A model generated the notes under the pieces. That model did not search any database and was not told the origin of the DNA. It saw only the letters and a list, made by a program, of their open reading frames with translations. A stretch of DNA of 4,660 nucleotides from a virus (lineage: Duplodnaviria; Heunggongvirae; Uroviricota; Caudoviricetes). Location: the IMG/VR virus record IMGVR_UViG_2695420699_000005; one strand, given 5' to 3'. The translations under genes and the position numbers were made by a program. Below, piece by piece: positions 1-4,476 of the stretch (its first letter is position 1; each line of letters opens with the position of its first letter).

Positions 1-657
1 GATGGGCGTCTAAGTTACCAATTCTCGTCTGATGGCTACATACGGCGGTCAGTTTACGCTTACATGAATGGCACACAGGAGCGGGAATTATCTCTGGCTG
101 AATTATCCTGGTGGGCGGTCCGCAATCAGGTGGCGGACGCGCTACCGGAAGCTGTATTACGTCGTTCACTGGGGTTGCGTGCGGAAAAAATCCGCTCCTT
201 GTACCGCGAAAGCGACATCGTACCGGGAGAGCAGACCGCCACCAGCATACTGAAGCAGCGCACAAAAAATCTTGCGCCGTTGCTTCACACCCACCAGCCA
301 CAGAACCCAGCACAGGAAAAGGCGGTGGTCAGCATTACCGTTGATCCGGAGTCACCGGAATCATTCATGAAGCGGCCTAAACGTCGCCGCTGGGTGAATG
401 AGAAATATACGAGCTGGGTGAAGACACAGCCGTGTGCGTGTTGTGGTCAGCCAGCCGACGATCCCCATCACCTGATTGGTCACGGTCAGGGAGGGATGGG
501 AACAAAATCTCACGATATTTTCACGCTACCGCTGTGTCGGGAGCATCACAACGAGCTTCATGCGGATCCGCTGGCGTTCGAAGAAAAGCATGGTTCTCAG
601 GTTGATTTAATTTTTCGTTTTCTTGATCACGCCTTTGCAACTGGCGTGCTTGGGTAA
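1..657 (+). CDS. DUF968-like zinc-ribbon / HNH-like protein, probably 5'-truncated by the window edge (first in-window ATG at 64)
   Basis: ORF 64..657 ends in a Cys/His cluster (CACCGQPADDPHH ... LPLCREHHNELH) that I recall as the conserved C-terminus of DUF968 proteins (YdfU-like) of lambdoid prophages. The frame has no stop from position 1 to 63, so the gene likely starts upstream of the window. No convincing Shine-Dalgarno precedes the ATG at 64. Position directly upstream of rusA and Q fits the nin region. Confidence 0.6.
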   Translation, partial: DGRLSYQFSSDGYIRRSVYAYMNGTQERELSLAELSWWAVRNQVADALPEAVLRRSLGLRAEKIRSLYRESDIVPGEQTATSILKQRTKNLAPLLHTHQPQNPAQEKAVVSITVDPESPESFMKRPKRRRWVNEKYTSWVKTQPCACCGQPADDPHHLIGHGQGGMGTKSHDIFTLPLCREHHNELHADPLAFEEKHGSQVDLIFRFLDHAFATGVLG

Positions 658-669
658 AAGAGGTGACTG

Positions 670-1029
670 ATGCTCATAGATTTGGTTTTACCTTACCCGC
701 CGACGGTGAACACTTACTGGCGACGCCGTGGCAGCACATATTTTATCTCGGAGGAGGGAAAGCGTTATCGCCGGGCTGTGGCGCTTATTGTTCGCCAGCA
801 GCGGCTGAAATTAAGCCTGTCCGGAACGCTGGCGATAAAGGTGATTGCAGAGCCACCGGATAAGCGTCGTCGCGACCTGGACAACATTCTGAAAGCACCG
901 CTGGATGCGCTGACGCATGCGGGAGTGCTCATTGATGACGAGCAGTTTGATGAAATCAATATTGTACGTGGTCAGCCAGTATCTGGTGGACGGCTGGGTG
1001 TGAAGATTTACAAAATTGAGAGTGAGTGA
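670..1029 (+). CDS. rusA: Holliday junction resolvase RusA (crossover junction endodeoxyribonuclease)
   Basis: 119 aa ORF with an AAGAGG Shine-Dalgarno about 7 nt upstream of the ATG. Size and the acidic motif DKRRRDLDNILK match my recollection of E. coli RusA (about 120 aa, DRRRRDLDN catalytic region). Canonical position just upstream of Q. Confidence 0.85.
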   Translation: MLIDLVLPYPPTVNTYWRRRGSTYFISEEGKRYRRAVALIVRQQRLKLSLSGTLAIKVIAEPPDKRRRDLDNILKAPLDALTHAGVLIDDEQFDEINIVRGQPVSGGRLGVKIYKIESE

Positions 1030-1568
1030 GCGTAAATATGATATATCCGGAAATTACAGGCAAAAGCGGCGAACATTTACGCCTGAACACGCTGGAAGCA
1101 GTCTGGATCCAGGGGAAATTACGGATGTGGGGGCGGTGGTCGTATATCGGTGGGGGTAAATCCGGAAATATGTTTAACCGGTTACTGGTTTCGAAAAAGC
1201 TGACGAAAACAGCAGTTAATGAGGTTTTACGCAGAATGAAGAAATCCGGGCTGGAAAAACCGGAACTTGAGGCATTTTTTCGGGATATGACAAGAGGAAA
1301 GCAGAAGAGCTGGTTGTCACATTGTACAGACACAGAGGCGTTGATTATTGATCGCGTTATCAGTGAGGTGCTTGGGGAATATCCCGGGCTAATCAATATT
1401 CTCCGGCAAAGGTACGAAGGACGGGGAATGAGTAAGAGAAAAATGGCAGAATGTTTAAATCGTACTCACCCGGAATGGTGTTTCAGCACATGTGAGAAAC
1501 GTATTGCAGGTTGGTTAGCCGTGGCTGAACACATGCTTTATGTACCTATGCACGATTCATTTCGATAA
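1026..1568 (+). CDS. Q-like late-gene antitermination protein (alternative start ATG at 1038)
   Basis: 180 aa ORF whose GTG start at 1026 overlaps the rusA stop (GTGA), with an ATG alternative at 1038. The gene after rusA in lambdoid phages is Q, and it is followed here by a structured leader and terminator-like hairpins as expected for a Q-acting region. The sequence looks by eye like Q-family proteins but the family was not verified. Confidence 0.6.
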   Translation: MSVNMIYPEITGKSGEHLRLNTLEAVWIQGKLRMWGRWSYIGGGKSGNMFNRLLVSKKLTKTAVNEVLRRMKKSGLEKPELEAFFRDMTRGKQKSWLSHCTDTEALIIDRVISEVLGEYPGLINILRQRYEGRGMSKRKMAECLNRTHPEWCFSTCEKRIAGWLAVAEHMLYVPMHDSFR

Positions 1569-1664
1569 AAAAAGCTTGCTTTTTTACGCAGAAACAGCTT
1601 GAATTCCTGTAAGCTTCGCAAAGCTGTATCGCGAGGCGAAATGCAAGTTTTTTCGCACAAGGAA

Positions 1665-1686
1665 GCCACCGGAAGGTGGTTTTTTT
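1665..1686 (+). terminator. Candidate intrinsic terminator (possible tR'-like target of Q antitermination)
   Basis: 5-bp GC-rich stem CCACC/GGTGG (1666-1670 / 1675-1679, optionally extended by G1665) closing a GGAA tetraloop, followed directly by a run of seven T (1680-1686). Lies about 100 nt downstream of the Q stop codon. Confidence 0.4.
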
Positions 1687-1809
1687 GTGTCCGTAATATA
1701 CAGCAGCGCAATAAATTCGCTGGTGGTTATTAATACCGTTCTTTCAGGTTGCTGGCTTTTTCGACAAGAGTTATTGGTGTGTCACGTTAACCGGAAAAGG
1801 GAAAAAGAC

Positions 1810-2007
1810 ATGCTGAAACAGCAGGATATGACAGAAACCGCCAGAGTGGTGTTTAATGAATTAAGCGTTACCGACCCGGCGACAGTCGGGGAGATTGCGC
1901 AGAATACTTACCTTTCACGCGAACGCTGCCAGTTAATACTGACCCAGCTGGTTATGGCGGGTCTGGCAGACTATCAGTTTGGTTGTTACAGACGCCTTCA
2001 GTCCTGA
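1810..2007 (+). CDS. Small winged-helix / HTH DNA-binding protein (65 aa), hypothetical
   Basis: Internal ATG at 1810 of track ORF 1687..2007, with an AGGG Shine-Dalgarno 8 nt upstream. The stretch TVGEIAQNTYLSRERCQLILTQLVMAGLADY looks like a helix-turn-helix/wing segment. The part of the ORF upstream of 1810 is less protein-like and overlaps the leader hairpins. Confidence 0.5.
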   Translation: MLKQQDMTETARVVFNELSVTDPATVGEIAQNTYLSRERCQLILTQLVMAGLADYQFGCYRRLQS

Positions 2008-2020
2008 AGGCTTTTTTATT
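1994..2020 (+). terminator. Rho-independent terminator overlapping the stop codon of the small wHTH gene
   Basis: 7-bp stem GCCTTCA/TGAAGGC (1994-2000 / 2005-2011) with loop GTCC, followed by TTTTTTATTT (2012-2020). Confidence 0.55.
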
Positions 2021-2034
2021 TGTGGTAAATGGGC

Positions 2035-2065
2035 GGCTGGTGGGTGTAAGGGGCACCCACCAGCC
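2035..2065 (+). repeat. Perfect 12-bp inverted repeat GGCTGGTGGGTG-N7-CACCCACCAGCC; each arm contains a Chi octamer
   Basis: Read directly: 2035-2046 is the exact reverse complement of 2054-2065, with a 7-nt spacer TAAGGGG. GCTGGTGG lies at 2036-2043 and its complement CCACCAGC at 2057-2064. No U-tract follows, so it is not a typical terminator. Confidence 0.85.
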
Positions 2066-2157
2066 ATCTGCTCATGCGTTGGGTTCACAAGCAAACCTCA
2101 GGCCCACTGCTTTGCGCAAAAGCAGAATGAGCCTATCAGAGACAGGCTTAATGATCC

Positions 2158-3207
2158 ATGCTTAATACTGTAAAAATATCCAGTTGTGAGTTAATCAACG
2201 CCGACTGCCTGGAATTTATGCGGTCGTTACCCGAAAATTCTGTTGACCTGATAGTCACGGACCCGCCGTACTTCAAAGTGAAACCCGAGGGCTGGGATAA
2301 CCAGTGGGCGGGTGATGAAGATTACCTGAAGTGGCTGGACCAGTGTCTTGCGCAGTTCTGGCGGGTGCTGAAACCTGCCGGAAGTCTTTACCTGTTCTGT
2401 GGCCATCGTCTGGCATCTGACACCGAAATCATGATGCGTGAGCGGTTTAACGTGCTGAACCATATCATCTGGGCAAAGCCGTCCGGACGCTGGAACGGGT
2501 GCAACAAGGAAAGCCTGCGGGCGTATTTCCCCGCCACAGAGCGCATTCTGTTCGCAGAGCATTATCAGGGGCCGTATCGTCCGAAAGATGCCGGGTATGA
2601 GGCGAAGGGTAGGGCACTGAAACAGCATGTGATGGCCCCGCTGATTGCTTACTTTCGTGATGCGCGCGCTGTCCTGGGGATAACGGCAAAACAGATTGCA
2701 GATGCCACAGGAAAGAAAAACATGGTGTCGCACTGGTTCAGTGCCGGTCAGTGGCAGCTGCCGAACGAAAGCGATTATCTGAAATTACAGGCACTGTTTG
2801 CCCGGGTGGCAGAAGAGAAGCATCAGCGGGGTGAACTGGAAAAGCCCCACCACCAGCTGGTGGATACGTATGCCTCTCTGAACCGACAGTATGCGGAGCT
2901 GCAGAGTGAATATAAGCATCTGCGGCGGTATTTTGGTGTGACGGCGCAGGTGCCGTACACGGATGTGTGGACACATAAACCGGTGCAGTTCTATCCCGGG
3001 AAACATCCGTGCGAAAAACCGGCAGAAATGCTGCAGCAGATAATCAGCGCAAGCAGTCGTCCGGGTGACCTGGTTGCAGATTTTTTTATGGGCTCAGGTT
3101 CAACGGTAAAAGCGGCACTGGCGCTCGGGCGTCGTGCAATTGGCGTTGAGCTGGAGACTGAACGTTTTGAGCAGACAGTCAGGGAAGTTCAGGATTTAAT
3201 CGTTTGA
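2158..3207 (+). CDS. DNA methyltransferase, beta-class (motif IV DPPY N-terminal, motif I FxGSGS C-terminal), probably N6-adenine; orphan, with no adjacent restriction endonuclease
   Basis: 349 aa ORF with VDLIVTDPPYF near the N-terminus (2245-2274) and DFFMGSGSTVKAALALGRRAIGVE near the C-terminus. That motif order (IV then I) is the beta permutation of amino-MTases, and DPPY favours N6-adenine over N4-cytosine (often SPPY). The antisense ORFs inside it are low-complexity and treated as artefacts. Confidence 0.85.
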   Translation: MLNTVKISSCELINADCLEFMRSLPENSVDLIVTDPPYFKVKPEGWDNQWAGDEDYLKWLDQCLAQFWRVLKPAGSLYLFCGHRLASDTEIMMRERFNVLNHIIWAKPSGRWNGCNKESLRAYFPATERILFAEHYQGPYRPKDAGYEAKGRALKQHVMAPLIAYFRDARAVLGITAKQIADATGKKNMVSHWFSAGQWQLPNESDYLKLQALFARVAEEKHQRGELEKPHHQLVDTYASLNRQYAELQSEYKHLRRYFGVTAQVPYTDVWTHKPVQFYPGKHPCEKPAEMLQQIISASSRPGDLVADFFMGSGSTVKAALALGRRAIGVELETERFEQTVREVQDLIV

Positions 3208-3256: not shown

Positions 3257-3332
3257 GGCCCTTTAGCTCAGTGGTGAGAGCGAGCGACTCATAATCGCCA
3301 GGTCGCTGGTTCAAATCCAGCAAGGGCCACCA
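3257..3332 (+). tRNA. ileZ: tRNA-Ile2-like (anticodon CAU, ileX/ileZ type; formally could read as tRNA-Met)
   Basis: 76 nt with acceptor stem GGCCCTT/AAGGGCC, D-arm AGCTCAGTGGTGAGAGC, anticodon loop CTCATAA, T-loop TTCAAAT, discriminator A and encoded CCA. Near-identical by recollection to E. coli ileX (tRNA-Ile LAU). A phage tRNA-Ile of this type next to a tRNA-Arg is the arrangement known from Stx-type lambdoid phages. Confidence 0.9.
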
Positions 3333-3432: not shown

Positions 3433-3509
3433 GCGTTGTTAGCTCAGCCGGACAGAGCAATTGCCTTCTAAGCAATCGGTCACTGGTTCGACTCCACTAC
3501 AACGCGCCA
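3433..3509 (+). tRNA. argO: tRNA-Arg (anticodon UCU, reads AGA)
   Basis: 77 nt with acceptor GCGTTGT/ACAACGC, D-arm AGCTCAGCCGGACAGAGC, anticodon stem-loop ATTGC-CTTCTAA-GCAAT (anticodon TCT), T-loop TTCGACT, discriminator G and encoded CCA. One C-C mismatch in the T-stem. Resembles E. coli argU. Confidence 0.85.
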
Positions 3510-3546: not shown

Positions 3547-3678
3547 GTATCTGCGCCACGCCCGGTGCATATCAACCACAGAGCCTTTCGGGGGTGAGCT
3601 TACGGAGTGGTCAGTGTGACTTTCTCTGTGGGCAGATCGCTCCCGGGCGTTGGCTCACCCACCCAAAGGAACGTCACG

Positions 3679-4111
3679 ATGTTTGGTATTTTTGGTAAAA
3701 AAAGCCCGCAGAGCGGCAACGGAAATTAAAAAGTTTGAAAAACGCGATCTGGCACAGGTGGTGATTAACGCCGCATACCTGGTGGCCTGTGCAGATGGTG
3801 AATGTGAGGCTTCCTAGAAAGCGAAGATCGAACAGGTACTGCGTAATCAGCCTGCGCTGTCCGCGTTTACGTCAGAAATTAATGCGATTAGCGCAACCAT
3901 TATCGGTCAGCTGGATACGAACTTTAAAATTGGTCGTCGTGCGGCGTTACGTGAGATCGAGGATGTGAAACACGATACGCGTGAAGCGGAAGATGTGCTG
4001 GATGTGGCGGTGGCCATTGCGGAGGCAGACGGCGAAATTGAGCCGGAAGAGCGCAAGGTGCTGGAAGAGATTGCCGGTGTTCTGGGTCTTCGTCTGGAGA
4101 ATCACCTGTGA
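3679..4111 (+). pseudogene. TerB-like (tellurite-resistance TerB family) gene disrupted by a frameshift in an A7 run and an in-frame amber codon
   Basis: ATG at 3679 with an AGGA Shine-Dalgarno 8 nt upstream reads MFGIFGKK then stops after 16 codons. Shifting +1 at the A7 run (3697-3703) continues as ARRAATEIKKFEKRDLAQVVINAAYLVACADGECEAS, hits TAG at 3815-3817, then continues KAKIEQVLRNQPALSAF...VAIAEADGEIEPEERKVLEEIAGVLGLRLENHL to TGA at 4109-4111. The composition is strongly protein-like and the ADGE...EE...L pattern resembles TerB-type domains, which I recall being annotated at this position in enterobacterial prophages. Confidence 0.5.
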
Positions 4112-4275
4112 CGGTAAAACTGCGCCTGACTGTGGCTGCACTCCTGCTGTTTCTGGTGGTGATGGTGGATTTCACCAGCAGAATCATGTCGGTGCTGGCG
4201 GATGGGGTGCTGGTCTGCGGCATTGTGGTATTGCTGTGGCCGGTGATAAAAAGAAACAGCCTGCATAATGCTTGA
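4108..4275 (+). CDS. Small hydrophobic membrane protein (about 55 aa, two predicted TM helices), translationally coupled to the TerB-like frame
   Basis: GTG start at 4108 overlaps the TerB-frame stop (GTGA). Translation VTVKLRLTVAALLLFLVVMVDFTSRIMSVLADGVLVCGIVVLLWPVIKRNSLHNA has two hydrophobic segments and ends at TGA 4273-4275. Track ORF 3981..4268 is in another frame and is W/R-rich and non-protein-like. Not in the ORF track under this frame; start codon uncertain (internal ATG alternatives exist). Confidence 0.4.
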   Translation: MTVKLRLTVAALLLFLVVMVDFTSRIMSVLADGVLVCGIVVLLWPVIKRNSLHNA

Positions 4276-4476
4276 TTTTTTTGTTTGCTGTTTATTAAAA
4301 ACACTTCTGCATGGTGAATCCCCCTGTGCGGAGGGGCAATCAGCGAGTAGGTATATGGGATAATCGCGGATTCAGGTGCTGGTACTGAATTCACCGGGAG
4401 GCACCCGGCACCATGCTTTGCCACAAAAGTGTTATTTCTGTTTTTCTCAAACTATCATCGTTATCCCTTTATTTCC

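Follow-up and report, generated by a model that had tools for sequence, protein, structure and literature searches.

Clustered Chi octamers between the replication origin and cos of a lambdoid Escherichia coli prophage probably reflect selection through host RecBCD

Chi, the octamer 5′-GCTGGTGG-3′, is the signal for Escherichia coli RecBCD. We analysed its occurrence in a 4,660-nucleotide stretch of viral DNA (IMG/VR record IMGVR_UViG_2695420699_000005; the whole stretch is called the window here), which, judged from its sequence, is the DUF968–RusA–Q–methylase–tRNA segment (nin/Q/late-regulatory region) of a lambdoid E. coli prophage. The window holds seven Chi octamers, and we consider it probable that the cluster arose by selection acting through RecBCD and Chi in a phage lineage without anti-RecBCD or recombination functions of its own. 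This reading jointly covers the exact octamer, a signal at synonymous sites, the localisation between the replication origin (ori) and cos, the recurrence in non-identical modules, and the orthology of two sites with Chi of phage LLS. The phenomenon is already known, down to those orthologous sites, and the window is a local example of a published pattern. An earlier reading of the letters alone (below, the sequence-only reading) had offered RecBCD-linked selection as one possible reason; the selection is supported, and has been published for lambdoids without anti-RecBCD functions, whereas an enrichment across the whole prophage is not.

Seven Chi octamers in the window

A pattern search found exactly seven Chi octamers, three on the plus strand and four on the minus strand, all of them exact; four lie in coding sequences and three are intergenic. 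Every position and strand that the sequence-only reading had listed was matched. The two figures it had given, an E. coli average of one Chi per 4–5 kb and the absence of Chi from lambda, agree with published values: 1008 Chi in the 4.6 Mb of K-12, about one per 4.6 kb, and none in lambda (Zheng et al. 2025, PMC12315714). Of 5426 complete E. coli genomes, 4866 have prophages that match the window, which also matches the Q-to-lysis region of many Shiga toxin (Stx)-converting phages, the best matches having 98.1–98.8% identity; by these E. coli prophage and phage matches, the octamer is one that the RecBCD of the host recognises. Four genomes serve for comparison: a prophage of about 49 kb that is a 98% relative of the window and is present as two stretches (L001 and L082), PPyecE_EH1910 (L083), phiP27 (L084) and LLS (L208). 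The sites are as follows, with fractions giving the relatives that carry them.

239–246, minus strand: Chi octamer in the DUF968 open reading frame (ORF), codons Ala-Thr-Ser; synonymous-compatible, prior 0.018, realised; 40/55 aligned relatives
291–298, minus strand: Chi octamer in the DUF968 ORF, Thr-His-Gln-Pro; synonymous-compatible, prior 0.099, realised
1719–1726, plus strand: intergenic Chi octamer, about 30 nucleotides 3′ of a terminator-like hairpin (1666–1679 and T7); 65/75 relatives
2036–2043, plus strand: Chi octamer in the left arm of a stem-loop, orthologue of LLS Chi 39318; 76/80 relatives
2057–2064, minus strand: Chi octamer, the lineage-specific partner of 2036 in the other (right) stem-loop arm; 42/80 relatives
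2850–2857 (minus strand) and 2856–2863 (plus strand): overlapping Chi octamers in the methylase ORF; both synonymous-compatible and realised, priors 0.09 and 0.17

In 200 dinucleotide-preserving shuffles of the window, Chi occurred 0.15 times on average and never more than once. Among all octamers of the window Chi is the most frequent, and its one-mismatch variants, a count that the sequence-only reading had proposed as a check, number 12 against 4.1 expected under a first-order Markov model. No direct-repeat family in the window carries the octamers, so they did not arise by duplication of a single segment. As two of the pairs form palindromes, the seven sites count as about five independent events.

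Individual sites show different histories in relatives. The spacing of 52 nucleotides between 239 and 291 is kept. Chi 1719, beyond the terminator-like hairpin that lies 3′ of the Q-like gene, also occurs in phiP27 and PPyecE_EH1910. At 2036 the block AATGGGCGGCTGGTGGGTGT is unchanged across the window, LLS, phiP27 and PPyecE, while Chi 2057 is replaced by TCACCAGC in 32 of 80 relatives and by CTGCCAGC in 5. The 13-nucleotide context of 291 (287–299) is the exact complement of 2035–2047, the left hairpin arm. This extended context (ACACCCACCAGCC / GGCTGGTGGGTGT) thus occurs in DUF968 and in both hairpin arms, and is longer than the octamer needs.

In 100 kb of DNA flanking the prophage in a related strain there are 29 Chi (0.29 per kb), with a maximum of 5 per 4.66-kb window. 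The Poisson probability of at least seven is 9 × 10⁻⁵ per 4.66-kb window at the K-12 density, about 0.1 window per genome, and by our own arithmetic about 5 × 10⁻⁴ at the flank density, about 0.5 window per genome. The count of seven alone is not overwhelming against real host density; the codon-level and comparative tests are decisive.

Synonymous sites are spelled as Chi more often than codon usage predicts

Much of the frequency of Chi in E. coli follows codon and dicodon usage, according to Subramaniam and Smith (bioRxiv 10.1101/2021.07.08.451572), and shared GC-rich codon usage was the alternative that the sequence-only reading had offered for the window. Synonymous codons were shuffled within each gene and Chi was counted in the coding sequences. 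The window gave 0.92 expected against 4 observed (p = 0.0017), and the full cluster of L001 gave 1.09 against 7, a number that none of 20,000 shuffles reached.

In a second test we enumerated every peptide position at which some synonymous spelling gives Chi on either strand. The window coding sequences have five such compatible sites, four of which are realised where codon usage predicts 0.57. Regions contrast within the relatives: 7 of 9 compatible sites are realised in the cluster genes of L001 and 0 of 13 in 13.4 kb of its head and tail genes (Fisher p = 2 × 10⁻⁴); for PPyecE_EH1910 the figures are 13/26 between cro and cos and 1/25 elsewhere (p = 3 × 10⁻⁴), and for phiP27 9/19 and 4/25 (p = 0.04). 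Because of these shuffling and compatible-site results, codon usage is excluded as the explanation for this region. The realised fraction of compatible sites is a simple codon-level measure that separates selection from codon usage, and it is what the present analysis adds to published work.

Chi is concentrated between the origin and cos

Of the 15 Chi in L001 and L082 together, 10 fall in the 3.2 kb from DUF968 to the methylase gene. The remaining five, in the other 46 kb or so, all lie between int and cos, and the roughly 38 kb to the right of cos, comprising structural, tail-fibre and effector or cargo DNA, has none. Between cro and cos lie 16 of the 17 Chi of PPyecE_EH1910 and 13 of the 17 of phiP27. 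Both the positions in relatives and the regional codon-level contrasts thus place Chi toward the right end, between ori and cos; the local density of 1.5–3 per kb is 5–14 times the 0.22–0.29 per kb of the host. The cluster recurs with small variations across 80 IMG/VR relatives, although per-octamer conservation among them is uninformative because the loci are about 95% identical overall, and only the comparison with LLS at 70–79% identity carries weight. Where IMG/VR relatives have an alternative upstream nin module, that module has its own set of 4–5 Chi.

Enrichment is therefore not prophage-wide. The sequence-only reading had named two observations that would count against it, a similar number of Chi in codon-shuffled genes and a lack of enrichment in the rest of the prophage. 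Shuffled counts were not similar, which favours selection; the rest of the prophage does lack enrichment, which goes against the genome-wide picture. Since concentration between ori and cos is the published signature, this lack refutes the genome-wide picture and not selection.

No strand-annealing recombinase and no Gam or Abc2 was recognised in L001 or PPyecE_EH1910 by Pfam, PHROGs or annotation, several ORFs there being of unknown function. The only recognisable nuclease in the early-left operons of L001 (7912–10383) and LLS (28759–29331) is a protein with a DnaQ-like 3′–5′ exonuclease domain, which in L001 has 823 residues and an Rv2179c-like C-terminal domain.

Two sites are orthologous to Chi of phage LLS

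Escherichia phage LLS, of the 'no Rec module – high Chi' class of lambdoids, grows better with RecBCD (Zheng, Casjens, Davidson, Amundsen and Smith 2025, Genome Res, PMC12315714). Its 23 Chi, 20 on the top strand and 3 on the bottom strand, cluster at the right end and outnumber every other octamer; the same pattern was found in 62 of 68 lambdoids without a Rec module, growth aided by RecBCD having been measured for LLS and three other phages only (PMC12315714). LLS is lambdoid in gene order like the window, and both have, in one order, an HNH/DUF968-like gene, an equally long Q gene, and a homologous methylase gene with its leader. Alignments cover window 343–600 (71%) and window 2027–3188, corresponding to LLS 39309–40470 (72%). 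LLS Chi 39318 aligns with window 2036 and LLS Chi 40138 with window 2856, all on the plus strand, so that two of the seven window Chi are orthologues of LLS sites. Local identity at the two positions is only 79% and 70%, and by our own arithmetic the chance of retaining both octamers is about 0.009. The phages differ in that LLS has 9 Chi in its structural genes, where L001 has none, and lacks both palindromic partners.

Enrichment of Chi in lambdoid phages and prophages without a RecBCD inhibitor (Inh−) was described by Bobay, Touchon and Rocha (2013). In their dataset, mostly E. coli prophages, the sites gather in the nin region, from the replication genes to the terminase, and the authors suggest that Chi density may account for the variability of that region. 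The averaged densities given there reach about 3 times that of the core genome, compared with a local density of 7–14 times the K-12 average here. No codon-level analysis was found in the passages of that paper that were read. A literature search for Chi together with Shiga-toxin prophages gave nothing.

How RecBCD could favour Chi in this region

We propose that the octamers are genuine Chi, accumulated by selection at largely synonymous and intergenic positions between the phage replication origin and cos. Phages of this kind, as published work suggests, would encode neither a strand-annealing recombinase nor a RecBCD inhibitor, and the double-strand ends of their replicating or cos-cut DNA would then be entered by host RecBCD. 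Chi in the right orientation would switch the enzyme from degradation to RecA loading, which would preserve the DNA and drive recombination yielding packageable concatemers. The benefit may be protection from degradation, as the sequence-only reading had proposed, or, as Zheng et al. argue, this stimulated RecBCD–RecA recombination making packageable concatemers (PMC12315714); the sequence data fit both. The octamer and the enzyme are those of chromosomal Chi and of Chi studied in lambda; wild-type lambda, by contrast, lacks Chi and inhibits RecBCD with Gam, and chromosomal Chi is polarised with replication. If the proposal is right, the window is a clean and dense case of a phage borrowing the host RecBCD–Chi system instead of carrying recombination or anti-nuclease genes. 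Because the same module carries Shiga-toxin cassettes in relatives, Chi-driven recombination would also bear on the movement of moron and toxin cassettes between prophages.

Both Chi orientations may be selected

In L001 the terminase lies downstream on the strand that corresponds to the plus strand of the window, which is therefore the top strand of the conventional lambda map. In lambda, Chi works only in the orientation met by RecBCD that enters at the right cos end (Subramaniam and Smith; Zheng et al.). The three top-strand Chi of the window (1719, 2036 and 2856) would serve such an enzyme; the four bottom-strand Chi (239, 291, 2057 and 2850) would, by our own inference, serve RecBCD moving rightward, for instance from ends on the ori side. 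An orientation bias relative to cos, which the sequence-only reading had suggested looking for, is thus not present in the window. Whole genomes have 11 top-strand and 4 bottom-strand Chi in L001 with L082, 11 and 6 in PPyecE, and 12 and 5 in phiP27, so that these relatives, like the published class, have at least eight top-strand and at most six bottom-strand sites per genome.

This excess has to be read against the contexts available to each strand. In the window, Chi is spelled in all three contexts compatible with the bottom strand (priors 0.018, 0.099 and 0.09; joint prior about 1.6 × 10⁻⁴). When homologous sites are collapsed across the window, L001, PPyecE and phiP27, which leaves small numbers of sites that are not fully independent, 9 of 13 bottom-strand contexts from cro to cos carry Chi, whereas none of the 14 in PPyecE and phiP27 structural genes does (p = 1.5 × 10⁻⁴). 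Top-strand contexts of the window lineage carry Chi in 15 of 34 cases, a difference from the bottom strand (p = 0.19) that runs opposite to the published polarity. The 2:1 excess of top-strand sites matches a 2:1 excess of compatible contexts and is therefore not a sign of stronger selection on the top strand; strong top-strand predominance beyond coding constraints was not found in the window lineage. LLS differs here too, since from cro to the end its realised contexts are 7/9 on the top strand and 1/6 on the bottom strand (p = 0.04).

These numbers lead us to suggest, tentatively and with more doubt than confidence, that bottom-strand Chi between ori and cos in this Stx-type or O157-type lineage have been under the same synonymous-site selection as top-strand Chi, and that RecBCD enters from the ori side as well. 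The free ends of rolling-circle tails running rightward would be one possible entry point, and broken forks another. Firing at lambda-type origins is both bidirectional and unidirectional, the latter in either direction, and the unidirectional kind comes before the rolling-circle mode (PMC3985674), which makes ori-side ends a possible rationale. The DUF968–Q–methylase segment would then be fenced by a two-way array of Chi, which the published model of entry at cos does not predict. Phage P1, which uses Chi on both strands because both its ends must recombine (Subramaniam and Smith), is a headful-packaging, terminally redundant phage, whereas packaging in the relatives of the window is lambda-like, HK97-like or annotated as cos. 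The residual novelty of our analysis, hinted at by these codon contexts, is the apparent selection of both Chi orientations in this lineage. The word 'orientation' is absent from the main text of Bobay et al., and no analysis of orientation relative to the origin was found in that paper or in Zheng et al.

The orientation of Chi also flips near the O-type replication gene in two genomes: in PPyecE (8995–22191) four bottom-strand sites lie to its left and mostly top-strand sites to its right, and in phiP27 (9692–21519) two bottom-strand Chi lie to its left; L001 shows no flip. The arrangement resembles the polarity of Chi about oriC.

The palindromic pairs and the methylase-leader hairpin

Two Chi pairs are arranged as palindromes, as the sequence-only reading had stated. 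One is a perfect inverted repeat (2035–2046/2054–2065) with a 12-bp stem and a 7-nucleotide loop, which lies within a larger structure:

2029–2075, plus strand: conserved stem-loop in the methylase leader; inner 12-bp stem, outer helix AUGGGC/GCUCAU, RNA minimum free energy −34 kcal/mol, z = −4.7

The other is the 14-nucleotide palindrome CCACCAGCTGGTGG at 2850–2863 in the methylase ORF, which encodes HHQLVD, again as that reading had it. As conserved units the pairs do not hold up. Chi 2057 is found in only 42/80 relatives, and Chi 2856 in 47/81 compared with 77/81 for its partner 2850. LLS keeps only the top-strand member of each pair, owing to a 1-nucleotide bulge in the right hairpin arm and a first His codon CAT instead of CAC; in phiP27 and PPyecE, where Val-Ser is encoded by GTC AGC, only 2850 remains. 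The simplest view of both palindromic arrangements is that they are by-products. In the 2036/2057 pair a Chi would lie inside a structured leader, with the opposite arm complementary by necessity, and the 2850/2856 pair would be two independently realisable synonymous sites that overlap in HHQLV(D). We considered SbcCD cleavage of a palindrome, giving a break flanked by two outward-active Chi, and set it aside on stem length. Palindromes that SbcCD is known to cleave in vivo are much longer than a stem of 12–19 bp.

The stem-loop is kept in four phages (window, LLS, phiP27 and PPyecE) down to about 72–79% identity, and the leader is 79% identical to that of LLS, compared with 70% for the methylase coding sequence. 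Changes in the hairpin are all one-sided, producing wobbles, a bulge or breaks, with no compensatory double changes among the four phages, and hence provide no proof by covariation. No Rfam family corresponds to the hairpin or leader, the only overlapping hit being P26 on the minus strand with 24 bits against a threshold of 36. The leader as a whole (2029–2157) has three stem-loops (2029–2075, about 2108–2126, and 2130–2148) and may be a regulatory or processed RNA element.

Viral contigs were also scanned for head-to-head Chi pairs (GCTGGTGG N0–30 CCACCAGC), and the matches listed include hairpins with Chi stems in other phage families: L102 2834–2856, L103 5839–5861 and 11833–11854, and L104 8080–8101 and 14076–14098. 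Stems of 8 bp, formed by Chi and its complement, enclose loops of 6–7 nucleotides; the contigs are rich in Chi, with about 46–48% GC, and some of the hairpins are followed by a T run, as in terminators. Among the matches listed, three contigs have two such hairpins about 6 kb apart in inverted orientation.

Alternative explanations

Each of the alternatives explains less than selection through RecBCD and Chi. Chance combined with composition and codon usage would need a GC-rich octamer that contains the favoured codon CTG to reach seven copies now and then in E. coli-like coding DNA. Host DNA does reach 5 Chi per 4.66 kb within a 100-kb sample, two of the seven sites are dependent palindromic partners, and dicodon usage accounts for much Chi abundance in E. 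coli (Subramaniam and Smith). We nevertheless regard this as extremely improbable: dinucleotide shuffles give 0.15 Chi and synonymous shuffles 0.92 for 4 and 1.09 for 7, compatible sites are realised at 4/5 and 7/9, compared with 0/13 in the structural genes, which belong to the same prophage and share its codon usage, the regional contrast returns in two other phages, and three sites are intergenic. Amelioration, which Zheng et al. (PMC12315714) raise as a caveat on surveys based on prophages, would have a decaying resident prophage drift to host statistics and gain Chi as the chromosome does. It would suit the source prophage and its closest relative, which both appear defective, the signs being IS insertions, frameshifts in int and J, and a TerB pseudogene. 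In the host of L001, moreover, the prophage top strand is the leading strand, so that top-strand Chi fit host polarity there and the polarities of host and phage are not separable at that locus; phage records and contigs from many assemblies show the same phage-relative orientation. Amelioration cannot overshoot, and a local density 5–14 times that of the host, beside about 38 kb of the same prophage without Chi, makes it very unlikely, as does the presence of the same sites in phiP27, isolated from a strain that produces Shiga toxin, in Stx2a-converting phages, and in LLS, which forms plaques.

Some of the octamers could instead serve roles unrelated to RecBCD, 2036 and 2057 forming the stem of a functional RNA or DNA hairpin and the others being targets that a phage protein, such as the methylase or the HNH-like DUF968 protein, binds or modifies. 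The stem-loop and leader are better conserved with LLS than the methylase coding sequence is, the right-arm changes keep RNA pairing by wobble or bulge, and hairpins with Chi stems, terminators among them, are present in further phage contigs. The hairpin, however, covers at most two of the seven sites, has neither compensatory changes nor an Rfam family, and leaves five sites that share only the octamer, bar the one 13-nucleotide coincidence. The octamer is the RecBCD signal of E. coli, and across hundreds of phages the phenomenon tracks the absence of anti-RecBCD genes (Bobay et al.; Zheng et al.); such roles are therefore quite unlikely as a general account. An explanation closer to ours, which we hold to be unlikely, keeps selection through RecBCD and changes the benefit: fewer degradation products to feed the acquisition of CRISPR spacers, or hotspots for the exchange of moron cassettes (stx versus TerB) and for nin mosaicism. 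The adjacent downstream cassette has indeed been swapped between relatives, Stx2AB replacing window ~3557–4337 between conserved flanks; Bobay et al. suggest that Chi density may explain how variable the nin region is; and a mix of the two orientations would promote exchange on either side. Evolvability, however, is selected only weakly next to a direct gain in growth, and for LLS the growth gain from RecBCD has been measured (PMC12315714).

Several observations nevertheless weigh against selection through RecBCD and Chi as we propose it. Four of the seven window Chi have the orientation that the published model calls inactive. The codon-usage argument of Subramaniam and Smith applies in general, though the tests here exclude it for this region, and conservation among close relatives gives no information at a background identity of about 95%. 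The absence of anti-RecBCD genes is seen in relatives only, the early-left region lying outside the window. The sites may by now be relics, because the source looks degraded, with an IS66 end in DUF968 and a stop in TerB. Chi activity is modulated by the 3′ flank, where A or G at nucleotides 4–7 is favourable (Taylor 2016). Here the window flanks are mixed: by our reading they are TTAA, TAAG and CGTA on the top strand and TCTG, TGAA, CCCC and GGCT on the bottom strand, with 0–3 purines each.

Gene content of the window

Gene order in the window (DUF968–RusA–Q–late) and in its relatives (int … cro–O–P-like … nin–Q–lysis–terminase–head–tail) is lambdoid. The features that accompany the Chi sites are listed below.

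1–63: outer end of an IS66-family insertion sequence (IS; ISEc23-like), abutting a shortened DUF968 gene; matches sequence beside IS66 tnpA in L207
64–657, plus strand: C-terminal part of the DUF968 / HNH-like gene (Pfam DUF968, E = 2 × 10⁻⁷⁷); the full gene in L001 encodes 348 residues
670–1029, plus strand: RusA Holliday-junction resolvase gene (Pfam RusA, E = 9 × 10⁻¹⁷)
1026–1568, plus strand: Q-type late antiterminator gene (Pfam DUF1133 / Phage_antitermQ)
1810–2007, plus strand: small ORF with a weak TrmB-like match (Pfam), followed by an intrinsic terminator (1994–2011 and a T run)
2158–3207, plus strand: N6/N4 DNA methyltransferase gene, homologue of LLS gp51 (70% nucleotide identity)
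3257–3332: tRNA-Met (CAT) by ARAGORN; homologue annotated tRNA-Ile (ileZ) in RefSeq and phiP27
3433–3509: tRNA-Arg (TCT) by ARAGORN
~3679–4111: gene of the TerB family, carrying an in-frame stop; RefSeq relatives have it as a pseudogene
4108–4275: DUF3927 gene

No relative of the module aligns to the left of position 64. Since 1–63 is an IS66 end, the source has a truncated or interrupted DUF968 whose native start is not the ATG at 64; the same end is the left limit of what is readable of the source cluster. The terminator stem at 1994–2011 has two compensatory pairs in LLS. The tRNA at 3257–3332 is presumably read as Ile after lysidine modification. The slot at 3557–4337, which here contains TerB and DUF3927, holds stx2AB in Stx2a-converting phages between the same conserved flanks, and the window therefore has the stx moron site in a toxin-free form. 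A strong match to the Rfam small RNA family STnc100 (101.5 bits, the gathering score being 47) spans 4280–4452, after DUF3927 and before the next gene of the late region.

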